42,495 nt of DNA from the IMG/VR virus record IMGVR_UViG_3300016478_000186, positions 1 to 42,495 of that record; one strand, written 5' to 3'. The position numbers were made by a program, and so were the translations under genes. Position 1 is the first letter of the stretch. Every line of letters starts with the position of its first letter. Below the pieces are notes generated by a model, which did not search any database, had not been told where the DNA came from, and saw only the letters and a list, made by a program, of their open reading frames with translations. Shown here piece by piece: positions 447-42,051 of the stretch. Source of the DNA: a virus (Duplodnaviria; Caudoviricetes).

Positions 447-1203
447 GGCTTACAAAGTTTGCACGAAGTGCAAAGAGCTGAAGCCCCTAACCGACTTCTT
501 CAAGAACAGCGAAAACAAGAAGGATGGGAGAATGGCTCGATGCAAAAGCTGCAAACAAGCAGAGACGGCCAAATGGGTCGCAAACAATCGAGACAGGCGC
601 AATGAGAAAAGGCGGGCCGCAGATCGAAAGCCTGAGCGCATCAAAGTCGCGAAGGCCTGGGAGGACAGGCCAGATGTTCGCGAGCGCAGAAACGCGGCGG
701 CTCGAGATCGAGCAGGCCTCAGAACGCCAGAGCAAAAGGAAAAGGTGTCAGCCTACTTGAAGGAGTACCGGAAGAAGACTCTGCGAGTCCGCAATCCTGA
801 ACAAGACAAGGCATATCGCTACGAATATGTGCGGCGTGAATCATCAAAGGCGCGAGCCAGGGAGTACGCTCGGAAGCGTTCGTCAACTCCTCGCGGGAAT
901 ATCGACAATCGAATGTCATCGGCAATCTGGAAGGCCGTGCAGAAGAACAATCGTTCGTGGGTATCGCTGGTAGGCTACACGCTCGACCAGCTCATGACCC
1001 ACCTGGGAAAGCAGTTCACGAAAGGCATGGGCTGGCACAACTTTGGTGAGTGGCACATCGACCATATCGTCCCGAAGTCATCGTTCACCTACGCGAGCAC
1101 AGACGATCCTGAGTTCAAGGAGTGCTGGTCACTCAGCAACCTTCGGCCGCTATGGGCTGATCAGAACTTGTCCAAGAGTTCGAAGCAAGTTTTCCTGCTG
1201 TAA
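430..1203 (+). CDS. HNH homing endonuclease-like protein
   Basis: N-terminal CTKC...CKSC zinc motif; C-terminal 'WHIDHIVP...LSNLRPLWADQNLSK' HNH-type core. Confidence 0.8.
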   Translation: MDCCSEAYKVCTKCKELKPLTDFFKNSENKKDGRMARCKSCKQAETAKWVANNRDRRNEKRRAADRKPERIKVAKAWEDRPDVRERRNAAARDRAGLRTPEQKEKVSAYLKEYRKKTLRVRNPEQDKAYRYEYVRRESSKARAREYARKRSSTPRGNIDNRMSSAIWKAVQKNNRSWVSLVGYTLDQLMTHLGKQFTKGMGWHNFGEWHIDHIVPKSSFTYASTDDPEFKECWSLSNLRPLWADQNLSKSSKQVFLL

Positions 1204-1240
1204 ACCAATCAACCAACAAGCCCTTGGAGGGCAATAACGC

Positions 1241-1708
1241 ATGGCTCGTGGAATCAACAAGGTGATCCTGGTCGGCAACTGTGGCGGCGACCCGGAGACC
1301 CGCTATTTGCCGAACGGTAACGCGGTCACCAACGTCACCCTGGCGACCTCGGAAACCTGGAAGGACAAGCAGTCCGGTGAGACCAAGGAAAAGACCGAAT
1401 GGCACCGTGTCGTGTTCTTCGGCAAGCTGGCGGAAATCGCCGGCGAGTACATGGGCAAAGGCAGCCAGTGCTACATCGAGGGCAAGCTGCAAACCCGCGA
1501 GTGGGAGAAGGACGGCGTCAAGCGCTACACCACCGAGATCGTGGTCGACTCCATGAACGGGGTCCTGCAATTGCTCGGCGGTAAGAAGGAGGGCGGCTCC
1601 TCTGGCGGCGGTCAGCCTGCCCAGCGCCAGCAGCCTCGCCCGGCCCAGCAGGCTGCTCCAGCGGCCGGCCCTGCGCCTGATGACTTCGATGTCGATATTC
1701 CGTTCTGA
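1241..1708 (+). CDS. ssb: single-stranded DNA-binding protein
   Basis: [13 protein letters not shown]...[19 protein letters not shown]...[10 protein letters not shown]; acidic DIPF tail; GGAGG RBS. Confidence 0.97.
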
Positions 1709-1716
1709 GGTGGCTT

Positions 1717-2094
1717 ATGGACTTTGAAGTTCCGGGCTACGAGGCCCTGGCAAACATTCTGGAGCTGGCCTACCGGCAGGCCTCGCAGGGGAAGGGCAAG
1801 GAGCGGCACGCCACCAGCGGGCAGCCGTTCCATGCCCAGCGCATGCAGACCTCCAGTGATGCGGTCGGCTCGCCTGACGGTATGGCCTACCAGGTGATCA
1901 AGAAGATGACCGAAGGCCTGGAGTTCGACGATCGCGAACGTTGCGAGCGCGAGCTGCTGGGCGCCATCAACTATCTGGCCGGTATCGCGATCTGGTTGCG
2001 GCGCAAGCACGGGCTCCCGCTCGACGGGCCGCTACAGCCTGCTCGCCCGATACCCACTGGTATCCAGATTGGTGGGTCTGCTCGTGAGTTCTGA
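1717..2094 (+). CDS. hypothetical phage protein
   Basis: GAGGT RBS, phage-like codon usage, tight packing after ssb. Confidence 0.7.
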   Translation: MDFEVPGYEALANILELAYRQASQGKGKERHATSGQPFHAQRMQTSSDAVGSPDGMAYQVIKKMTEGLEFDDRERCERELLGAINYLAGIAIWLRRKHGLPLDGPLQPARPIPTGIQIGGSAREF

Positions 2095-2542
2095 GGCTCG
2101 TGTTCAACGGGAGATATGGCTCGGCCTGGGATTGCTTTCCAGGCTGTTCCGCCTCAACTCTGGCCGCGCATGGTTGTCGAACCTGGGGCCGCAGTCGGTC
2201 AAGAAGTTGTCCGATGGTTCTGTGCTGATTCCTGCTGCTCGCCCGATACCGCTCGGGCTGGCCACCACCAGTGGTGATCCTGTCGTTGGTCAGCATGACC
2301 TGTTCGGCTGGACTGAAATCGAAATCACGCCGGAAATGGTGGGGTCGGTTGTCCCGGTGGTCACCGCGATCGAAACCAAGCGCAGCAAGGGCGGCAAAAC
2401 CTCAGAAGGGCAGATCAATTTTGGCGACCAGGTTCGCAACGCTGGCGGCATCGCTGGCGTAGCCAATTCGAAGGAGGCCGCCCTGGCCATCATTCAGAAT
2501 TGGGTGAATCAAAGGAGCGCAAAGTTGAAAAAACTGAGGTAG
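2084..2542 (+). CDS. VRR-NUC domain (PD-(D/E)XK) nuclease
   Basis: SE..VQREI start, 'LFRLNSG', 'DLFG', 'AIETKR..GKTSEGQINF..V..AGGIAGV' match the VRR-NUC pattern; GTG at 2084 chosen as start. Confidence 0.85.
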   Translation: MSSEARVQREIWLGLGLLSRLFRLNSGRAWLSNLGPQSVKKLSDGSVLIPAARPIPLGLATTSGDPVVGQHDLFGWTEIEITPEMVGSVVPVVTAIETKRSKGGKTSEGQINFGDQVRNAGGIAGVANSKEAALAIIQNWVNQRSAKLKKLR

Positions 2543-2741
2543 GATTGGCCGGCCGTGATCTCTGGGGACGCGGCCGTTTTCACAAAATCACTGATTTACA
2601 CGGGTTCTCGCGAGCCTTCTTTTGTTGCGAGCCCGATACTGTTTTGGGCTAGGCGGTGACTAGCTATCGCCGCTGAAGAGTGCGTTCTGCGCGCGCCTGC
2701 CCAATTTCTTACAACGCAGTTGACCCAAGGCAGAATGGTCT

Positions 2742-5606
2742 ATGAGTGGGCTCCTTCCCGCATCCGTTATCGACAAAGCAAAATCTGACATTGTCGCTGT
2801 TGTTTCCCGCTACGTTGAGCTTGAAAAGAAGGGCAAGGAGTTTGCAGCCTGCTGCCCTTTTCATAGCGAGCGCACTGCTTCCTTCTCGGTGATCCCTGAT
2901 AAAAACGCCTTCTACTGCTTCGGCTGTGGCGCTGGCGGTGATGCCGTGGACTTCGTCCAGAAGTACGAGAATGTCACCTTCCGTGAGGCGGTTAACCGCA
3001 TCGTCGGTGGCCTCTCTGGCGATCAGGCGTTCACACCTCTGCCGCCGAAGAAGCAGGAAGAGCCCGAGTGGAAGCCGGTAGTACCGGTGCCGTCTGGGCT
3101 GAAGCAACGACCGATGGACGTATTCAACCGTCCGAAGGGCGACGGCTTTGAGAGGCTTGTGTCGAGCAAACGCTGGGAATACCGCGACGCCAATGGCGGC
3201 CTGATCGGCTACATCTGCCGATTCGAGCTCCCGACTGGCGGTAAGGACGTAATCCCGCAGTCGTTCTGCGCGAACACCAAGACTGGCGTGATGTCCTGGC
3301 GCTGGCTGTCGTTCGATAAGCCGCGCCCACTCTATGGCCTTGACCTGTTGGCTGCCAATCCGGATGCCCAGGTCCTGCTGGTCGAAGGCGAGAAGGCCTG
3401 CGACGCGGCCCGGGATCTGCTGGCTGCAGCCGGCGTGCCAATCAATAAGCTGGTGGCCGTGTCTTGGCCGGGTGGCGGTAAGGCTGTTCGCCTGACTGAC
3501 TGGTCTGCCCTGGCTGGCCGCTCCGTTGCGCTGTGGCCTGACGCCGACCAGAAGAACTGGCCGAAGGGTCACCGCCTGCACGCTGAAGTCATGCCGTTCA
3601 TGATGCAGCCCGGTACCATCTGCATGGTCGATGTGCTGGAGCACATCCGCGAGACCGCTAAGTCCGTCAAGTTCATTGTGCCGCCGGCCGGCGTGCCGGA
3701 TGGTTGGGACCTGGCCGACGAGCTGCCGGAGGGGTTCTCGCTGCTGGCGCACATGCGTGCTGCTGCCTTGACCGAGGACGAGCTCTGGGCTCGCTACCCT
3801 GAAACTGACGCGCCGACCGAAGAGGCGCCAGCGCCGGAAGTCATCGCTGAGGCTCCGCCTGCGGCTGATGATGACTACCTGGATATGCCGCCGTGGGAAG
3901 GCGAGGATGTTCCGGTCGCGGGCTCTGGCTCAACCATGGCGCCTGACGATGGTGATGGCCTGGATGACCTGGTGAAGAACACCTACTTCACCATCCTGGG
4001 GTATGACCAGGGCACCTACTTCGTCTTCCAGCACGAGAAGCTGCAGGTTCTGTCGATCACCAAGGGCGACCTGTCCGATATCGGCCTGATCGAGCTGGCG
4101 CCGGCTAACTGGTGGGAGGAGCATTTCCCGTCCGACAAGGGTGTGAATCGCAAGGCTGCCGCCAACTGGCTGTTCCGTGTGGCCAACTCCAAGGGCATCT
4201 ACGACCCGACCCGCGTGCGCGGTCGTGGCGCCTGGCGCGATGCTGGTCGGCATGTGTTCCACCATGGCGGCTATCTGACCGTCGACGGTGCTGAGACGGG
4301 CATCACCCAGATCAAGTCGAAGTTTGTGTACCCGCTGTCGCGCAGCATGCCGGAGCTGGCCGCGCCGATGACCGACCTCGAAGGGCGCCAGCTCCTGAAG
4401 GTCGCGACAATGGTGCGCTGGTCTAAGCCTGCGTCGGGCCCGCTGATGGCTGGCTGGGTAATGCTGGCGGCGATCTGTGGCTCGCTGCGCTGGCGTCCGC
4501 ACATCTGGCTGACCGGTGCTGCAGGCTCTGGCAAGTCAACCATCCTGAGCGAGTATGTGGCTGCCCTGCTTGGCGCCTTCGGCGTGTTTGCGCAGGGTAA
4601 CTCCACCGAGGCGGGCATCCGCCAGAAGCTGGCCAGCGATGCTCAGCCGGTCATGATTGACGAGCTCGAATCCAACACCGAGGCCGAGCGCCGTCGGGTC
4701 GAGTCGATCCTGTCGCTGATCCGTCAGGCCTCGACCGAGTCGCCGGCTGAAACCCTGAAGGGTACGGTCGGCGGCAGCGCCATGAACTTCCATATCCGCT
4801 CCATGTTCTGCCTGGCCTCGGTCAACACCGCGATCGAGAAGAAGGCCGATATCGATCGCCTGACGAAGCTGGTCGTGCGGCCACCGGCAAACGCGGCTGA
4901 GGCTGAGGAGCAATGGGCGCGTCTGTCCGACGAGCTCCACAAGATCAAGACCGACGAGACCATTTCCAGCCGTCTCCTGGCTCGTGCTCTCGGCATGCTG
5001 CCGGTGATCCACGAGAATATCGGCGTCTTCACCTCCGTGGCCGCCAAGCACTTCGGTACCCAGCGCGACGGTGACCAGTTCGGTACCCTACTGGCCGGCT
5101 GCTGGTGCCTGGTGAACAGCACCGTGGCCACCCCGGACGAAGCGCTCAAAATGATTAACTTCTACGACTGGAATGAGCATACCGAGGACCATGATCAGGA
5201 TGACGCGCAGCGCGCTCTGTCTGCTCTGCTGGGTGCCAAGCTGCGGGTCGGTGGCAGCACCGCCGAGCTGTCGGTGTACGAGCTGATCTGCGAAACGTCG
5301 CCGCATCATCGCGCCGGCGTGCTGGACAACATGACCGCCGAGGCTGTTCTCAAGCGCCACGGGATCCGCGTCGACTACATGACCGATACCCTGCTGTTCG
5401 GTACCAGCGTCGACAACCTCAAGGCCCTGGTTGAGAAGATGGACTTCGTGACCGACCTGCGCGGGCAGTTGCTGCGGGTGAAAGGTGCGACCCGGGTCGA
5501 CAAGACTGTGCGCTTCATGGGCTCGGCGTCGAAGTGCGTGGCGGTACCGCTGTCGCCAATCCTGGGCGAAGAGAAGGTCCTGTCTCCGGATGAGCCGCCG
5601 ATCTGA
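2742..5606 (+). CDS. DNA primase-helicase (CHC2 zinc finger + TOPRIM + P-loop helicase)
   Basis: CCPFHSERTASF...FYCFGCGAGGD (DnaG-type zinc finger); 'LLVEGEKACDA' and 'WPDAD' (TOPRIM); GAAGSGKS Walker A and VMIDE Walker B. Confidence 0.92.
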   Translation: MSGLLPASVIDKAKSDIVAVVSRYVELEKKGKEFAACCPFHSERTASFSVIPDKNAFYCFGCGAGGDAVDFVQKYENVTFREAVNRIVGGLSGDQAFTPLPPKKQEEPEWKPVVPVPSGLKQRPMDVFNRPKGDGFERLVSSKRWEYRDANGGLIGYICRFELPTGGKDVIPQSFCANTKTGVMSWRWLSFDKPRPLYGLDLLAANPDAQVLLVEGEKACDAARDLLAAAGVPINKLVAVSWPGGGKAVRLTDWSALAGRSVALWPDADQKNWPKGHRLHAEVMPFMMQPGTICMVDVLEHIRETAKSVKFIVPPAGVPDGWDLADELPEGFSLLAHMRAAALTEDELWARYPETDAPTEEAPAPEVIAEAPPAADDDYLDMPPWEGEDVPVAGSGSTMAPDDGDGLDDLVKNTYFTILGYDQGTYFVFQHEKLQVLSITKGDLSDIGLIELAPANWWEEHFPSDKGVNRKAAANWLFRVANSKGIYDPTRVRGRGAWRDAGRHVFHHGGYLTVDGAETGITQIKSKFVYPLSRSMPELAAPMTDLEGRQLLKVATMVRWSKPASGPLMAGWVMLAAICGSLRWRPHIWLTGAAGSGKSTILSEYVAALLGAFGVFAQGNSTEAGIRQKLASDAQPVMIDELESNTEAERRRVESILSLIRQASTESPAETLKGTVGGSAMNFHIRSMFCLASVNTAIEKKADIDRLTKLVVRPPANAAEAEEQWARLSDELHKIKTDETISSRLLARALGMLPVIHENIGVFTSVAAKHFGTQRDGDQFGTLLAGCWCLVNSTVATPDEALKMINFYDWNEHTEDHDQDDAQRALSALLGAKLRVGGSTAELSVYELICETSPHHRAGVLDNMTAEAVLKRHGIRVDYMTDTLLFGTSVDNLKALVEKMDFVTDLRGQLLRVKGATRVDKTVRFMGSASKCVAVPLSPILGEEKVLSPDEPPI

Positions 5607-21055: not shown

Positions 21056-21152
21056 GGTACTATCCATCCTGCAAGGCTAGGGAGGCCACCCGAAAAGCGA
21101 TCTAGTCCGTCGCCTGCCTTGCTCACCATTAAGGACTTTACTTTGGACAAGT

Positions 21153-34371: not shown

Positions 34372-34387
34372 GTCGTGAGTGCAGATT
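34372..34387 (+). promoter_or_regulatory. putative phage late promoter motif (leaderless)
   Basis: GTCGTGAGTGCAGATT; in-frame ATG 7 nt downstream (34394). Confidence 0.6.
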
Positions 34388-34393
34388 CTGCCA

Positions 34394-37027
34394 ATGCCTG
34401 AGATTACGATCCGCCTTCCTGCCCCGCACCCTGCCCAACAGAAGATCCTGGCCAAGCCCTCCAGGTATAACGTCGTCTGCATGGGCGAGAAGGGCGGCAA
34501 GACTACGCTTGGCATTGAGGTGCTGATCGCTTCCCGGCGCGGCGCGCTGTACAGCAAGGTGCCGGTCGCCTGGTTCTCTCCGTTTAAGGATGACCTGGTC
34601 GAGGTAAAGCGGCTGGTCAAGCGGGCGATCGACTCCCTGATCAAGCGCCAGGTCAACTCTCGGCGCATTGAGCTCGTAAACGGCAATTTCATCGACTTCT
34701 ATTCGATGGATGAGCTGCCGAACGCCTTCCCGCAGTACGGCCTGATCGTCGTGGACGATGTGCGCAAGGTTCCCAGCTTTCAGGACAAGTTTCAGGATAC
34801 GCTGCAGGAGACCCTGCGCGAGCGGAATGGTCAGGCGTGGCTGCTGTCTGGCGCCTACGGGATGAAGAACGACTTTTACCACCTGTTCCGTCGCGGCCTG
34901 ACCGATGGCGACTGGTCGTGCTGGCAGTTCGACTCCTGGTGCAATCCAGACCTGCCGCAGTCGGCGATCGATGAGGCGGAGCGAATTTCCGACCTGGAGT
35001 GCCGGCAGCGCTTCGGTGCTGAATTCCTCGAGCACGCCATCGAGCTCTCGGACACCCAGCGCATTATCGCCCCTGACGAGACGTTCCTGCAGTGGTGTGA
35101 GCGGCTGGAGGCCTCGGGCCTGAAGGTGGACGGCCACAACTTCACCCTGTCCAACCGTCCGGCCATGCGCTTCATCTATGAAATGATCCCGTCGACCGTC
35201 GAGGAGGCCTTCGACCGCACCGACGTCATCATGAAGTGCACGCAGGTTGGCTTCACCGTCATGGAAATGCTGGCCATGATCTATCTGGCCATCAAGTTTT
35301 CCCCGGCGAAGATCGGTATGTTCATGCCGTCGACCATGCTGGCTTCGGGCAAGTCCTCCGAGCGCTTCATGCCGATCGTCCGCACCATCCCTGCCATTTA
35401 CTCGCTGATGACCGACAAGGAGTCGGTGGGCTCCAAGGGTGGCGAGGGTAACGTGCTGATCCGTAACGTCGGGCCATCGCGCTTCCACTTCCTGTGGACC
35501 TCGGGCAAGACCTCTACCGAGTCCAACCCGATGGATATCATCTCGTTCGACGAGGTGCAGGAGATGTCTATCGCGGATATGGAAAAGACCCGCGAGCGTA
35601 TGTCCGCCTCCCGGGTCCGCTATACCCTGATGGGCTCGACGGCAAACTGGCCGGATTCGGACATTCACTGGTGGTACAAAAAGGGGACCCAGCACCAGTT
35701 CCACACCATGTGCCCCGAGTGCGGTGCTGGACAGGTGCTGGACGAGCACTTCCCGCAGTGCATTGGCTACGACCCTAACCACCCGCGTCGCGTGTCACGG
35801 CATGGCCAGAAGGCAGCGCTTGGCGAATACCGGTACCGGTGCCATTCGTGCTCTGGCTGGATCGATGACCCGCAGGTGGGCGAGTGGATTGCCAAAAACC
35901 CGGACGCCGATATTCGCTCGGTGCACTTCCCGCAGTTCCTATCGCCGACCATCTCGCCCCGGGACATCATCGAGGCGTATCACAACGCCGACGATATGAA
36001 GAACTTCTTTAACCGGAAGCTGGGCAAGCCCTACACCGACCCGTCTCAGGTGCCGGTGAACCTGGAAATGCTCAACGAGTGCGCTCGCCTGGGCATGGCT
36101 GCAGGCCTGGCGTGGAAGGCTCGGGCCTCTGGCACGTTCATGGGCATCGACCAGATGGGTAACTTCAACGTCGCCATTATCAAAGAGCGGATGCCTGATG
36201 GCCGGCAGGCGGTGGTGCACCTGGAGTACATCTTCACGGCGCCGACCAAGGAAAACCCAGAGGCCTCGCCTTTCGATCGATGCGACGAGCTCATGCGCCA
36301 GTACGGTGTTCAGTGCTGCGTGATGGAGACGCTGCCGAACTACAACGACGCCAAGCGTTTTGCCCAGCGCCACCCTGGTAAGGTGTTTCTTGCTGGCTAC
36401 GGCAACCTGCAGGAGGAAATGTTGCGCTGGGGCGATACCCCGAAGCAGAACACTTCCGATCGCCGGACCAGCGAGGAGGAGCGCGACGACTGGACGGTGA
36501 CCCTGGACCAGTACAAGTGCATGCAGGTGTCGATGAAGCGCTTCCAGAACTACACCTGCCTGTTCCCGGATCCGGACGGCCTGGTTCAAGAGGTCAAGGA
36601 AAAGGGCGTCACGCAGACCATGGCCGTGTGCAAGGAGCTGGCCTTCTTCCACTTCACTCGAACCGCGCTGATCGCGGAGAAGGACGAGGAAGAGAAGAAG
36701 TACCGCCGGCGCGTGGTCAAGGTCGGTATTGACCCGCACACCAGCTACGCCAACATGCTGTGCGACGTCGCCTGGTCGCGCGCATACGGCACTTCGACGT
36801 TTATCCTGCCGGACGTATCGCCGACGAACAAAGGCCCGTCACAGCCGAACGTGGGTCGCGTGCCGGGCACTGCTGGCGCGGTAATGGAGCAAATCGAGCA
36901 GCTCGTGTCGGATACCTGTGGCGGTTGCGCCAGCCGGGACCCGAACACGAGCTATTGCAAGGAAATGGAGGCTTTCGTGCGTCCGCAGGATCCTGGCTGC
37001 TGGGCGTACATTGCTCGCCAGTCCTAG
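34394..37027 (+). CDS. terminase large subunit (lambda gpA-like) with an extra N-terminal degenerate terminase-ATPase module
   Basis: 'KCTQVGFT' gpA-type Walker A, 'ISFDEV' Walker B, CPEC/CHSC zinc motifs, 'FMGID' nuclease motif; extra N-terminal about 220 aa with 'HPAQ..I', 'GEKGGKT', 'IVVDD'. Confidence 0.88.
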   Translation: MPEITIRLPAPHPAQQKILAKPSRYNVVCMGEKGGKTTLGIEVLIASRRGALYSKVPVAWFSPFKDDLVEVKRLVKRAIDSLIKRQVNSRRIELVNGNFIDFYSMDELPNAFPQYGLIVVDDVRKVPSFQDKFQDTLQETLRERNGQAWLLSGAYGMKNDFYHLFRRGLTDGDWSCWQFDSWCNPDLPQSAIDEAERISDLECRQRFGAEFLEHAIELSDTQRIIAPDETFLQWCERLEASGLKVDGHNFTLSNRPAMRFIYEMIPSTVEEAFDRTDVIMKCTQVGFTVMEMLAMIYLAIKFSPAKIGMFMPSTMLASGKSSERFMPIVRTIPAIYSLMTDKESVGSKGGEGNVLIRNVGPSRFHFLWTSGKTSTESNPMDIISFDEVQEMSIADMEKTRERMSASRVRYTLMGSTANWPDSDIHWWYKKGTQHQFHTMCPECGAGQVLDEHFPQCIGYDPNHPRRVSRHGQKAALGEYRYRCHSCSGWIDDPQVGEWIAKNPDADIRSVHFPQFLSPTISPRDIIEAYHNADDMKNFFNRKLGKPYTDPSQVPVNLEMLNECARLGMAAGLAWKARASGTFMGIDQMGNFNVAIIKERMPDGRQAVVHLEYIFTAPTKENPEASPFDRCDELMRQYGVQCCVMETLPNYNDAKRFAQRHPGKVFLAGYGNLQEEMLRWGDTPKQNTSDRRTSEEERDDWTVTLDQYKCMQVSMKRFQNYTCLFPDPDGLVQEVKEKGVTQTMAVCKELAFFHFTRTALIAEKDEEEKKYRRRVVKVGIDPHTSYANMLCDVAWSRAYGTSTFILPDVSPTNKGPSQPNVGRVPGTAGAVMEQIEQLVSDTCGGCASRDPNTSYCKEMEAFVRPQDPGCWAYIARQS

Positions 37028-38067: not shown

Positions 38068-38997
38068 TTACGCCTGCTCAGTCTCGGCAGGCTGTTCTTC
38101 TTCCGGCTTGTAGCCGAGCAGGTCGCAGAGCTGGTTCAGCGCGCTGCTGAACATGAGCGTCTGCGCGGCTGCGTCCTGGCGCCACATGAAGACCTCGTCG
38201 CGCTCCTCGGCGTCGTCGCGCTCGTCTTCGTCGTCGGCAAAGCTGACCGCCTTGAAGTGGAAGTCTGCGGTCAGCTTGAACTCTACCCCGCTGTGGGCCA
38301 AGGCCAGACGCTCGACAACAAAGCCCTTCTCCATCGCCTCCAGCAGGCCCTGGCTGGCCACTCCGATATCGGCGAGGCTGTAGCTGACCTTCTGGCTGTG
38401 GTTTTTCAGCGCAGCGCTGGCGCCCACCTCGAAGCCTTCGAAGGCGTCAGGGTTGCCCTGCAGGAAGGCCTTCAGGCGGGTGGTGAGGCCGTTTTTGATG
38501 TCGCTGATGTGGATGGTGCTGGTCTTGACGCTGCCGACCACATGGATCAGGCGGCTGACCAGAATGTTTGCCAGATTTTTGCTGCCTACCGCGACGATCA
38601 GGAGGTTGTCGGTGGTGTTGTAGAAGGCGGTGATGATGGCGGTCTTCACCAGTGCGGTGCGGGCCAGGTCGACCATGACTTGCTCGGCGATCGCCACTCG
38701 CTCGATCTTCTTGAGGCGGTGGCCGGCGGCCTGCTCGACTGCCTTGATGCGCTCGTTGGCCTTTTCGCGGACGATGCTTTTCGGCAGGATCTTCTCGTCG
38801 TAGCGCAGGCTGAAGGAGTAGCCGCCCTGGAATTCGGTTACCAGCTCGTTGGAGGTGCGGTTGGCTACGAAGCTGGCGTTGTCGATCATGGTTTCGCCGA
38901 TCGGGCTATACGGCAGCTCGGCCAGGTGCTTAATCAGTTGAGCTGCGGTCGGAAGCTCGGCCTTGTAAACGATGGCATTCTTGATGTGGTTGAACAT
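38068..38997 (-). CDS. rdgC: recombination-associated protein RdgC-like
   Basis: 'KNAIVYK', 'LRYDEKILPKSIVRE', 'VERLAL...FKLTADF', about 310 aa; GAGGAAAGG RBS. Confidence 0.8.
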   Translation of the reverse strand: MFNHIKNAIVYKAELPTAAQLIKHLAELPYSPIGETMIDNASFVANRTSNELVTEFQGGYSFSLRYDEKILPKSIVREKANERIKAVEQAAGHRLKKIERVAIAEQVMVDLARTALVKTAIITAFYNTTDNLLIVAVGSKNLANILVSRLIHVVGSVKTSTIHISDIKNGLTTRLKAFLQGNPDAFEGFEVGASAALKNHSQKVSYSLADIGVASQGLLEAMEKGFVVERLALAHSGVEFKLTADFHFKAVSFADDEDERDDAEERDEVFMWRQDAAAQTLMFSSALNQLCDLLGYKPEEEQPAETEQA

Positions 38998-39052
38998 TTC
39001 CTTTCCTCGTTGGTGCCGGCTGCAGGCCGGCGCTGGTCGTTCGACAGGGCGA

Positions 39053-39082
39053 ACAATACTAGGTTTATTCTTGTTCGGGCAA
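39053..39082 (-). promoter_or_regulatory. sigma70-like promoter for the rdgC operon, overlapped by an inverted repeat
   Basis: TTGCCC-18 nt-TATTGT; CGAACAA (39050-39056) / TTGTTCG (39071-39077). Confidence 0.6.
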
Positions 39083-39096
39083 GCAAACAGGCAAAG

Positions 39097-39120
39097 AAAA
39101 AGCCCGCTAGCGGGCTTTTC
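39097..39120 (-). terminator. intrinsic terminator
   Basis: AAAAGCCCGC-TA-GCGGGCTTTTT hairpin with T-tracts on both strands. Confidence 0.85.
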
Positions 39121-39416
39121 TTGTTGCTCCAGTGGCGCTACTGGACTGTTCGGAATTGCGCTGTGTGTCTGCTTTCCACACCGCTCTGCATGGGGGAACA
39201 CAGAAGCCCGTCTAGGGGGCCTGTCTCGCTCGCTGTAGGGGGTTGCGACCCTTCCCGCTGGCGACGTCTATCTGTGCTCTCCGATGCAGCCTGGCCGAGG
39301 CCAGGTGATCGGTCCTTGTACCTTATCCGCGCCAAGGCTCGCGGGTTTTATCGCTGGGCCAGACTTCCCAGCTCCACTAGGGCAGTGGCTTGGTGGCTGA
39401 CACACCAAGATTTTGC

Positions 39417-39875
39417 TTAGATGTGACACCAAGTCTTGCGGCTGATCACATCTGAAATTGTTTGTCTGGCAACTCCGAATTCATCTGCTAGTTCGCGATG
39501 TGTTGAGTGCGATCCCCTGATTCTGATGACGTCAGCCTCTGTCAGCTTTGACTTTCCATGGTTTTCACCGGTGTTGTCGATGGCTGGCATTGCTGCTCGC
39601 CCTTTGCTGCTCATGTCGATCATGTTGTCTTGGTGGGTGCCAAGACTTAAATGCCTCGGGTTGATGCACGCTGGCTGGTCGCACGAGTGCATCACCAGCA
39701 TTCCGCCAGCTATGGCGCCATATTTCAGTGCGTATGCAACTCGGTGCGCTCGCTTCTGTCCTGCATGATTGAACCACCCGTACCCATCCTTGTCTTTGCT
39801 GAACGGCCAAAGGATGCATTCTTCAGTATCGGACTCGATGGCTCCGGTCATGAAGGTGATTTTGTTCGATCGCAT
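39417..39875 (-). CDS. HNH endonuclease (HNH_3-like) with C-terminal HTH
   Basis: 'ECILWP...GYG...AHRVAY...VMHSCDQPACINPRHLSLGTHQDNMID', 'GENHGKSKLT'; GGAGG RBS. Confidence 0.9.
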   Translation of the reverse strand: MRSNKITFMTGAIESDTEECILWPFSKDKDGYGWFNHAGQKRAHRVAYALKYGAIAGGMLVMHSCDQPACINPRHLSLGTHQDNMIDMSSKGRAAMPAIDNTGENHGKSKLTEADVIRIRGSHSTHRELADEFGVARQTISDVISRKTWCHI

Positions 39876-39981
39876 ACGCCTCCAAATTGGATTCCCAGTC
39901 TTTCCTGAGAGTCAGTCGGTTACCGCATCCGACGGCCCTTACGCTGGCTCGTGGCCATGGGCGGAATTCCCAACGAAGGAA

Positions 39982-40233
39982 TTACGAAGATGCCTCAATT
40001 CTAAGCACCGGATCATTTCTGTGCAACCTAGAATTGCGCTCGTTTTCGGCGCGGCACGCATTGCAGATCGCGTGGTATGTGCGCCTGGTGCTGATGTAGG
40101 AGAAGAATTCGCTGTCGCGCGGCCACCACTCGTCGCAGCAGCGGCACAGCTGCTCGATGCCCAGCTCTGTGCTGCGGATGCCGATGTGCGCGCTCCAGTC
40201 TTCGCGCAGGACCTGTTGTGCTCGTGAAATCAT
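39982..40233 (-). CDS. small zinc-binding protein
   Basis: 'LCRCCDEWWP..EFF...CNAC'. Confidence 0.65.
   Translation of the reverse strand: MISRAQQVLREDWSAHIGIRSTELGIEQLCRCCDEWWPRDSEFFSYISTRRTYHAICNACRAENERNSRLHRNDPVLRIEASS
39998..40026 (-). promoter_or_regulatory. sigma70-like promoter
   Basis: TTGCAC-17 nt-TAGAAT. Confidence 0.7.
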
Positions 40234-40326: not shown

Positions 40327-42051
40327 ATGACTGATAAAGCCCTCGAAGTTGCACACAACCCGCAAGCGCCAGCCGATGAGCGCCAGGATGCCCTGCGCGA
40401 GGCTCAGCAGTCGGCCATGCCTTCCTCTGTCGATAACATGCTGCCACTCGTTCAGTACGTGCAGCAGCAGTACGAAGAGGAGCAGATGCGCAAGGCGCTA
40501 TCCAAGCCGAAGGTGATCCCATTCCCGTCGCGCGCGGTGCGTGAAGGCGACCCGGGCATGCAGTCGCTCTGGCTGGATGATCAGCGCGCCCAGGTCCTGG
40601 GGGAGTGGTACGAGCGGCCTACGGCCTTCGGCTTCGATATGATGCGGCAGATGGTTGACCAGACCCCTGTGCTGTCTGCTGTCATTCTGACCCGCCAGCG
40701 CCAGATCAAGCGCTTCTGCCGTGTTCAGGCCGGCGGGGAGGGTCCTGGCTTCCAGATCGCGCTCAAGGACCCGAGCATGAAGCTCGGCGACGAGGAGAAA
40801 ACCTCCATTCAGTTGCTGGAGGGCTTCTTTACCAACTGCGGGTGGGAGTCGAATCCGCGCCAGCGCATGCGCTTGAAGCGCGACAACTTCTCCGGCCTGA
40901 TGGCAAAGCTGGTTCGTGACAGTCTGATCATGGACTCGGCGCCGATCGAGACGGAATGGAAGCGCGACCGCCGGCTCGGGCTGGATGGCCTGTATGCCGT
41001 GGACGGCGCCACCATCCGACTCTGCAACGAGGTCGGGTACGAGGGTGATGACGAAATCTTCGCGCTGCAGGTGGTCAATGGCCAAATCCGCACCGCCTAC
41101 ACCTACGACGACCTGATTTACGTTCCGCGCAATCCGCGCAGCGATGTGCTGGTCGGCGGTTACGGCCTGGGCGAGACTGAGCTGCTCGTGCGGGTGGTCA
41201 CTGGCTTCCTCAATGCCATGACCTATAACCTCAAGTATTTTGACTCGAACGCCATCCCGAAGGGCCTGCTCCACCTGACTGGAGACTACGGCGCCGAGGA
41301 CCTGAACGCCTTTAAGCGTTACTGGAACTCAATGGTGAAGGGCATTAACAACGCCTGGACGCTGCCGGTGCTGGTCAGCAAAAACCAGGAATCCAAGGCT
41401 GCTTTCGAGAACTTCGGCGTCGACGTAAACGAGATCATGTTCGCCAAGTGGATGACGTTCCTGACGTCGATCATCTGCGCGATCTATGGCATCGCTCCCG
41501 ACGAGATTAACTTCGAGTCCTTCACCGCCGGTACCAGCTCCCTGTCGGGTAGCGACACCGAGGAGAAGCTGATCAACTCGAAGGACAAGGGCATGCGTCC
41601 GCTGCTGGCGCACTTCGAGGACGTCTTCTCCGACTATGTCGTCTCCGAGTTTGGTGAGAAGTATTGCTTCCGCTGGACCGGTCTGGACGAGGAAGACCCG
41701 AAGGACGTCTGGGACCAGCAGAAAACCCTCCTGACCGTGAATGAGGCCCGCAAGGCTCGCGGCTGGGACGAGATCAAGGAAGACTGGGGCAACGCTCCGC
41801 TTAACCCCGCCCTCATGGGTGCCTATCAGGCCGCCCAGCAGGCCGCTGGCGAGGATTACGGCCAGCCGGGCGGTGACTATCCGCCTGGCGGCAATGACGA
41901 CGGCCAGCCTCCGCCTCCCGGCGCTCCTGGCGAGCAGGACGATCCTGGCGCTGCGCCGCCTGATGGCGAGCAGGATCCTGCCGATGACAACGGCCCGGAA
42001 ATGCAGAAGGCCTTCGGCCTTGGCACTCAAGTGTGGCGCGTCGATCCGTGA
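40327..42051 (+). CDS. portal protein
   Basis: 'LYAVDGATIR', 'YGLGETE', 'YNLKYFDSNAIPKGLL', 'ICAIYGIAPDEI', 'LTVNEARKARG' are typical portal motifs; acidic Pro/Gly tail. Confidence 0.92.
   Translation: MTDKALEVAHNPQAPADERQDALREAQQSAMPSSVDNMLPLVQYVQQQYEEEQMRKALSKPKVIPFPSRAVREGDPGMQSLWLDDQRAQVLGEWYERPTAFGFDMMRQMVDQTPVLSAVILTRQRQIKRFCRVQAGGEGPGFQIALKDPSMKLGDEEKTSIQLLEGFFTNCGWESNPRQRMRLKRDNFSGLMAKLVRDSLIMDSAPIETEWKRDRRLGLDGLYAVDGATIRLCNEVGYEGDDEIFALQVVNGQIRTAYTYDDLIYVPRNPRSDVLVGGYGLGETELLVRVVTGFLNAMTYNLKYFDSNAIPKGLLHLTGDYGAEDLNAFKRYWNSMVKGINNAWTLPVLVSKNQESKAAFENFGVDVNEIMFAKWMTFLTSIICAIYGIAPDEINFESFTAGTSSLSGSDTEEKLINSKDKGMRPLLAHFEDVFSDYVVSEFGEKYCFRWTGLDEEDPKDVWDQQKTLLTVNEARKARGWDEIKEDWGNAPLNPALMGAYQAAQQAAGEDYGQPGGDYPPGGNDDGQPPPPGAPGEQDDPGAAPPDGEQDPADDNGPEMQKAFGLGTQVWRVDP

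Follow-up and report, generated by a model that had tools for sequence, protein, structure and literature searches.

Do the hairpin-rich arms around a small HNH endonuclease gene form one RNA with a task of its own, and does the nuclease take any part in it? The question is raised by a unit on the minus strand of the virus record IMGVR_UViG_3300016478_000186 (Duplodnaviria; Caudoviricetes). This record, 42,495 bases long and about 45% complete, was analyzed as a whole and is called the window hereafter; the unit lies between its terminase (34379-37027) and portal (40327-42051) genes, upstream of rdgC. An earlier note, made from the sequence alone, had described a stand-alone transcription unit with two structured arms enclosing the HNH open reading frame (ORF), and had proposed either a non-coding RNA of about 430 nucleotides (nt) invaded by a homing endonuclease, or an RNA partner of the nuclease. 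It was right that the unit stands alone and that it holds an undescribed structured phage RNA. Sequence comparisons indicate that what is new here is an uncatalogued 90-nt phage RNA module, set in a mosaic non-coding unit, to which the HNH gene adds little.

A covarying 90-nt RNA module

The module (39193-39282, minus strand) is a real, selected and covarying RNA fold. It forms a three-way junction, in which helix P1, of 11 base pairs (bp), leads into the junction strand UAGA (39270-39267), P2 ends in a 7-nt loop, N-UCGCAA (39249-39243), a second junction strand, AGACA (39226-39222), follows, and P3, of 5 bp with a 7-nt loop, is continuous with P1. Covariation was assessed on an alignment of 20 distinct copies, 4 of them free-standing and 16 lying in transfer-messenger RNA genes (tmRNA-type copies, described below); identical duplicates, one partial copy and the copies L056, L069 and L152, in which a P3 segment occurs twice, were excluded, as was L061. 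Of the 557 cells of the module structure, 95.9% are paired, compared with 34-54% in slid controls, and double changes are found in 19 of the 28 pairs, a count that none of 500 shuffles reached. Taken separately, the 16 tmRNA-type rows have double changes in 10/30 pairs and the 4 free-standing rows in 11/30. RNAalifold independently recovers the same three-way junction (21 of 31 pairs).

About 30 positions of the alignment are invariant, and those that are unpaired make up the UAGA and AGACA junction strands and the UCGCAA loop. No unpaired base separates P3 from P1 in any of the 20 rows, and the two helices would stack coaxially. The dinucleotide GA is invariant on both junction strands, where two pairing registers compete. 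In the P3 loop of five tmRNA-type copies (L056, L069, L152, L356 and L365), short duplications or insertions are tolerated while the junction words stay fixed; the P3 loop is therefore probably not the business end of the RNA.

Folding energies point to the same part of the unit. The 3' arm folds better than shuffled controls, with a z-score of -4.1 when the terminator is included (0/100 shuffles as good) and of -2.35 without it (3/200), and the region of the module itself (39288-39187) has a z-score of -2.9 (3/200). The stretches before the module (39416-39290; z -1.1, 29/200) and after it (z -1.5, 16/200) fold no better than shuffles, and neither does the 5' arm (z -0.67, 47/200; -0.51 in a second run). 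The claim of structured RNA in both arms is borne out for the 3' arm and the module, and is not supported for the 5' arm and for the stretches on either side of the module.

Most copies lie in the spacers of permuted tmRNA genes

The first homologue was a blastn match to an unannotated gap in a transfer RNA (tRNA) array of the 910-kb plasmid of Pseudomonas sp. FeN3W (CP136011, hereafter the megaplasmid), which has a core in common with the window copy, with compensatory stems. A pattern scan then yielded a phage copy, L027 (1 of 10 matches real), and further scans yielded 16 real copies among 56 matches in IMG/VR and at least 15 in metagenomes (15 among the first 119 of about 170 matches).

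In most cases the module is found in a circularly permuted tmRNA gene, flanked by the CCA end and the 5' G run. The Rfam model tmRNA_permuted matches 10 of the 11 loci tested, the eleventh being a free-standing copy, and ARAGORN calls a permuted tmRNA in 16/25 loci. In total, 21 distinct tmRNA spacers hold the module; they measure 92-103 nt, about 60 nt more than the consensus spacer of Rfam beta_tmRNA, and are carried by phage or metagenome contigs, two of which are complete viruses of 174 and 214 kb. Three permuted phage tmRNAs (L165, L176 and L365) have a T-loop reading GCAG... in place of the usual GTTC....

Four copies are free-standing: those of the window, of the megaplasmid tRNA array, of L027 and of L132, the last two being intergenic among tiny phage-like ORFs. 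All four sit on long imperfect clamp stems, with a hairpin at the same place before the clamp. A 390-nt contig of set X8 appears to be a fifth, with 7 differences over 39203-39272 and flanks of its own. Two side observations concern these loci. In L027, about 560 nt after a promoter-like site (480-1040) are hairpin-rich and probably a non-coding leader. In the megaplasmid, the module is flanked by two copies of a unit of some 190 nt (L020:2770-2960 and 3110-3290), which have tRNA-like cores; of the two cores, only the second passes the Rfam threshold for tRNA.

A covariance model separates members from chance matches to the patterns, since the 99 loci found by pattern only score at most 15.6 bits, and members at least 60. 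When the P2-loop words alone were used as pattern, 17 loci were recovered, two of which were new, and all 17 match the model (60-109 bits; in one, the contig stops within the copy). In a junction-only viral scan, dominated by one coding sequence, every real member among the matches listed carries the P2 loop.

Other searches returned little. Blastn of the 3' arm, the 5' arm, the L027 RNA, a tmRNA-type spacer and L132 against GenBank phages and plasmids gave nothing beyond chance except the megaplasmid. Thirteen pattern matches in 185,579 GTDB genomes included no real copy; the module was not found there, which is no proof of absence. The model had no match in 151 sampled GTDB genomes, in a run without a positive control, nor in the genomes of phages ST4, Jeremy, Dolphis and PHB04, nor in the stretches of Touem01 and fHe-Yen8-01 that were examined. 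A further viral scan gave one real match out of 13, the L027 contig already described.

What the module may do

We read the unit as a mosaic non-coding cassette, whose portable 90-nt RNA is likely excised and likely acts in trans as a protein-binding decoy, the HNH gene being a likely passenger; we give this reading about one chance in two. The spacer of permuted tmRNAs is usually treated as discarded filler. One fold is under selection inside this spacer and also outside it, in unrelated phages and in a megaplasmid, and we therefore argue that the module has its own job. According to PMC11915505, enzymes of tRNA processing cut the precursors of two-piece tmRNAs, and the mature RNA does not contain the spacer, so that the module would be released from tmRNA-type loci. 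It would then be a by-product of the maturation of an abundant RNA. For the free-standing copies, the long imperfect clamp stem may serve as the cut site of an RNase III-like enzyme. Once free, the unpaired junction, with GA opposite GA and P3 stacked on P1, may fold as a kinked core akin to a k-junction, and this core would form a binding surface together with the 7-nt P2 loop. We infer such a surface because the unpaired bases of junction and loop are kept across very different settings. The module would then act in trans as a decoy for a host protein. That this partner is a translation-related protein is a guess, made because the module keeps company with tRNAs and tmRNAs and because its tmRNA-type copies weakly resemble the stalk base of 23S rRNA.

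Several points weigh against this reading. Sixteen of the 20 aligned rows belong to one related lineage, so that cell counts overstate the number of independent events. The invariance of the junction and loop was partly imposed by the search patterns, which the pattern-reduced scans offset only in part. Of the two junction registers, the better supported one (19/20 rows, as compared with 13/20) has the C that follows GA paired to the G that precedes AGACA, and their neighbours paired as well; in this register, tandem G-A pairs could form only with one more A bulged out. The sole contig from an RNA library, a 110-nt contig of the L027 type at depth 3 in wastewater metatranscriptome X16, is a weak hint of expression and could be DNA carry-over. 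Moreover, the likeness to 23S ribosomal RNA (rRNA) is missing from all 4 free-standing copies, the window's own included, and the data do not separate protein binding from self-cleavage.

A less probable alternative is that the module is a new self-cleaving ribozyme, or self-processing element, which cuts stable-RNA precursors and phage leaders in cis. Its size, its three-way junction and its 30 or so invariant positions would suit a small ribozyme, as would the intergenic place of the L027 and L132 copies among tiny phage ORFs. Theta ribozymes adjoin phage tRNAs and self-cleave (PMC10879173), and an enrichment near phage-related genes has been described for the self-cleaving ribozymes of bacteria (PMC10085705). 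On the other hand, no Rfam ribozyme family matches the module at E up to 10, and by eye no covarying loop-loop pseudoknot is seen in the alignment. In two-piece tmRNAs, moreover, host enzymes carry out maturation with no element of this kind, and the consensus spacer of Rfam beta_tmRNA is shorter by some 60 nt.

Slightly less likely again is a cis-acting processing or stability signal, shaped like a tRNA without a D stem, which would recruit maturation enzymes or shield the precursor and have no job once released. The topology is indeed tRNA-like: a stem, a U-A-G linker, a long arm with a 7-nt loop that has U at its second position, then a 5-nt linker and, continuous with the stem, an arm of 5 bp that ends in a 7-nt loop. 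In phage Jeremy, moreover, the corresponding clamp is filled by a tRNA-like gene (see below). Nevertheless, the third arm has no T-loop consensus and no G-C pair closing it, CCA is absent after the stem, and neither the Rfam tRNA model nor ARAGORN calls the module. For the window, L027 and L132 copies, no tRNA or tmRNA is called nearby.

Finally, the decoy could be a more specific one. The portable RNA might mimic, by means of a k-junction, positions 1039-1112 of 23S rRNA, and be made in bulk from tmRNA spacers and tRNA arrays; we regard this proposal as doubtful. This stretch is the stalk base of the ribosome, with a role in L10 and L11 binding. For 14 of the 16 tmRNA-type copies, the best alignment is to E. 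coli 23S 1039-1112, and for 8/16 of these rows at most 9 of 5000 decoys score as high; for the 4 free-standing rows, 719-3889 decoys do. As a profile the likeness is not significant (E 5.7-7.4), and since the 23S stretch was picked after the match had been seen, we treat it as weak. If true, unrelated proteobacterial phages would use this RNA to titrate a protein of the ribosome, a factor of translation or of the stringent response, or a defence enzyme recognizing this 23S site.

The decoy, ribozyme and processing models can be told apart at low cost: the module is small, its structure is well supported, natural variants exist, and one copy is carried by a cultured Pseudomonas strain (CP136011).

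A mosaic unit

Around the module, the unit is best read, from sequence comparisons, as a string of small RNA modules that pass between the stable-RNA loci of phages. All of its parts lie on the minus strand. It begins with the predicted sigma70-like promoter of the earlier note, TTGCAC-17-TAGAAT (40026-39998), which is indeed present and overlaps the end of the upstream ORF. A promoter scan gave 1 site where 1.1 are expected by chance, so this prediction rests on synteny with phages Jeremy and Dolphis, where TTGCAT-N18-TACCAT is found at the corresponding place, and not on the scan. Among the variants listed for contig sets X2, X7 and X8, the -35 box has one change and the -10 box none.

The 5' arm holds a piece of two hairpins with a terminal GAAAGA loop (39946-39890), immediately ahead of the ribosome-binding site of the HNH gene. 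This piece has a homologue in the megaplasmid (L020:5726-5792), found through an 18-nt exact match (E 0.008) that extends to about 60 nt; none of 500 shuffles scored as high, for an interval already chosen. The homologue lies between a tRNA-Pro gene and a further tRNA gene. The RNAalifold fold of the piece is weak, from two sequences only. The ribosome-binding site, GGAGG (39883-39879), is partly enclosed in a weak hairpin; of the TCCAA-T-TTGGA hairpin that had been proposed, the stem survives as 4 bp with a predicted 3-nt loop, a 1-nt loop being impossible. After the HNH gene (39875-39417) come four small hairpins (39416-39316), for which sequence searches gave no convincing homologue, then a scaffold (39315-39283) that consists of GGACCGATCAC, of a hairpin and of CTGCAT (39289-39284), which is the clamp stem's 5' strand. 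The module follows, then the 3' strand of the clamp, ATGCAG (39191-39186), and two weak hairpins (39185-39125), which contain one strand (39161-39148) of the closing helix proposed earlier and are missing from the X8 contig that spans the locus. The unit ends with an intrinsic terminator (39119-39098), self-complementary and usable in both directions, after which a promoter-like site and rdgC are found; the strong terminator seen earlier is therefore there, as are all ten listed hairpin arm pairs (7/7 in the 3' arm and 3/3 in the 5' arm).

Comparison with close strains shows how this string is broken up. In long contigs of sets X7 and X8, the upstream gene, the 5' arm, the HNH gene and 39416-39280 are kept at more than 95% identity, and the match breaks off at 39280, where P1 starts. 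The X8 contig rejoins the window within rdgC after 1621 other letters, which take the place of 38931-39280 and are alternative cargo in the same slot. In an independent wastewater run, X2, the window's full allele is present in overlapping contigs.

In the syntenic units of Jeremy and Dolphis, there is a promoter-like site, a non-coding stretch and a homologous terminator, without any HNH gene; these units are too diverged from the window to map an insertion site. The terminator and the stretch downstream are homologous in both phages (0/200 shuffles each). Jeremy also shares the scaffold just upstream of the module (1/200 shuffles) and the clamp stem, where the same clamp encloses an unannotated tRNA-like gene (L342:5189-5286, minus strand; Rfam tRNA, 34.9 bits). 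This gene has 37 nt instead of 13 in the anticodon-arm stretch and resembles the tRNA-Arg of phage ZC03. The stretch before the module matches Bordetella phage PHB04 weakly (2/200 shuffles, in one of 21 comparisons). The module sits in interchangeable stem-clamped slots: a tmRNA spacer, a tRNA array, phage intergenic leaders. Separately, upstream of the scaffold, Jeremy and Dolphis (L342:5330-5430 and L343:4090-4200, minus strand) share some 100 nt of conserved non-coding sequence, without Rfam match.

It is improbable, in the light of this make-up, that both arms belong to one 430-nt RNA closed by a 14-nt helix, with the HNH gene inserted in a loop, be it as an intron. The 12/14 match between 39974-39961 and 39161-39148 announced in the earlier note is real, and the helix forms partly in the predicted ensemble, with a pair probability of about 0.33 in the full transcript and of 0.5 with the ORF removed (first nine pairs), the last three pairs being near 0. 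Pieces of both arms also have homologues in one megaplasmid tRNA array, and the full allele recurs in X2. Closure of one domain across the ORF, however, does not stand: a Watson-Crick match of 12/14 was reached in 7/60 shuffles (56/60 with G-U allowed), the divergence at 39280 leaves X8 with the 5' strand of the helix and without its partner, and X7 has several changes in this strand. In the megaplasmid, the homologue of the 5'-arm piece lies 2.7 kb downstream of the module copy, in an order reversed with respect to the window. No HNH-less allele joining the two arms was found across the ORF in 4 contig sets, which cannot show its absence, and Rfam gives no intron match. A joined HNH-less allele was also sought in the megaplasmid and found no support, 213 of 1000 shuffles being as good.

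The HNH gene

The ORF encodes 152 amino acids (aa) and was correctly placed and named in the earlier note (Pfam HNH_3, PF13392, E 6e-10; 39 bits for a cut-off of 24.8). Its conserved His, Cys and Asn columns are invariant in 9 aligned sequences, it matches PHROG families phrog_6254, phrog_59 and phrog_1872, and a protein search retained 86 relatives among 98 candidates; those in 1459 phage records are all below 60% identity. The G+C content at third codon positions is 0.59, below the 0.80-0.86 of terL, portal and rdgC, which indicates recent acquisition. No interrupted gene is evident on either side of the unit, and 14 loci of distant relatives (30-51% identity) have no flank in common with the window. 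The suggestion that the HNH gene invaded a non-coding unit agrees with the HNH-free syntenic units and with the independent gain and loss of gene and module. Sequence evidence makes it likely that the gene is an ordinary, recently arrived homing-type passenger, unrelated to the module.

That the RNA is instead a guide or partner of the nuclease, as their co-transcription, predicted from the common promoter and terminator, might suggest, is very hard to sustain, because tblastn found an HNH relative in 0 of 62 module loci (0.4-6 kb each, repeat fetches of the same contigs included), 0 of 13 loci of distant HNH relatives hold the module, X7 and X8 carry the HNH gene without it, and the protein is a small ordinary HNH in which no extra RNA-binding domain was detected. 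In HEARO/IscB-type systems, RNA and HNH nuclease co-occur across loci; an RNA-guided HNH of this type was considered and dropped, no such co-occurrence being found here. Free-standing homing endonucleases are well known from the RNA clusters of phages, and the window gene resembles them in its domain, conserved residues, foreign codon use and absence from syntenic relatives. We found no difference from them; the gene simply sits in a non-coding unit.

Setting of the window

By its terminase, the window is related (53-70% identity) to Aeromonas phage ST4, Pseudomonas phages Touem01, Jeremy and Dolphis, and three enterobacterial phages of 90-95 kb. Upstream of the unit, an 83-aa ORF with a Cys motif (39982-40233, minus strand) belongs to phrog_3273, of unknown function, and no viral relative of it was found. 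Downstream, rdgC (38068-38997, minus strand; Pfam RdgC, E 5.6e-35) is the neighbour; three rdgC loci have no RNA in common with the unit. Near the terminase-portal interval, ST4 (L340:9462-10740, minus strand) and PHB04 (L345:12870-13960) each have a long hairpin-rich stretch with little or no annotation, the former running into three tRNA genes; no Rfam family besides tRNA matches these stretches. The sole gathering-level Rfam match in the window is an int-alpA RNA at 21070-21135 (plus strand, 40.6 bits).

Comparison with known RNA families

The module locus has no match in Rfam 15 at the gathering threshold, and 38900-40200 gives only terminator-like noise at E up to 10. A tmRNA-type spacer searched in isolation reaches 11.2 bits at best, and L027 and L132 give none. 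The earlier note could match the unit to no tRNA, tmRNA, RNase P or group I/II core, and Rfam and ARAGORN likewise call nothing at the locus. On the region that includes the ORF, Intron_gpI gives nothing at E up to 10. There is no tmRNA at the window locus (0 ARAGORN genes and no Rfam match), which has only the spacer cargo in common with tmRNA loci, and no tRNA, a D stem being absent. Likenesses to group I P/Q/R/S elements, RNase P and glycine, glutamine or Mn riboswitches were dropped for want of Rfam support. The open full-text literature that we searched, subscription journals not being covered, holds no description of the module. The supplement text of PMC11915505 does not contain its motif words, and neither do the readable supplements of PMC10690425, among whose ten thousand candidates it may nevertheless figure.

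One structural likeness is to the k-junction of thiamine pyrophosphate (TPP) riboswitches, as PMC4005666 describes it: a three-way junction whose third helix is continuous with the first, with a 2-nt unpaired stretch then GA, GA opposite, and the formula 2HS2HS4, which the module fits in one register. The third helix also lies in the non-bulged strand, contiguous with the C helix, and presumably stacked on it. Unlike the k-junction, the 2HS2HS4 register is here the less well paired one (13/20 vs 19/20), and no TPP aptamer is matched.

Another likeness is to L10_leader (RF00557) and its 23S counterpart, since the words AGAC...CGAG resemble 23S 1046-1049 and 1109-1112 (PMC4538822). According to the same source, L10 binding needs a kink-turn and an unpaired UAA. 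Kink-turn-like words are present, but UAA is not conserved among the unpaired columns of the module, the L10_leader model has no match at E up to 10 in 3 records, and, in contrast with L10 leaders, the module is not upstream of rplJ.

Small RNAs released from longer precursors are familiar in phages, as with the stable RNAs of the T4 tRNA cluster, of unknown function, and the P1 C4 and P4 CI RNAs; the module differs in matching no such Rfam family. Theta ribozymes, related to those of hepatitis delta virus (HDV), are likewise small conserved RNAs in phage stable-RNA loci, and lie beside phage tRNAs, where they self-cleave (PMC10879173). The module, by contrast, is a three-way junction, with no nested pseudoknot seen and no Rfam match to HDV-like families.

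A further comparison is with the spacer of permuted tmRNAs (RF04321 tmRNA_permuted, RF01850 beta_tmRNA), since in 21 distinct cases the module is that spacer. Circularly permuted tmRNA genes occur in phages (PMC9004378), and their spacer slot can hold other cargo, such as a tRNA-Ala gene or a repeat (PMC11915505); the accessible parts of these two sources describe no family of conserved structured spacers. Compared with such spacers, the module is longer, strongly conserved and covarying, and it also stands free, as in the window, which has no tmRNA.

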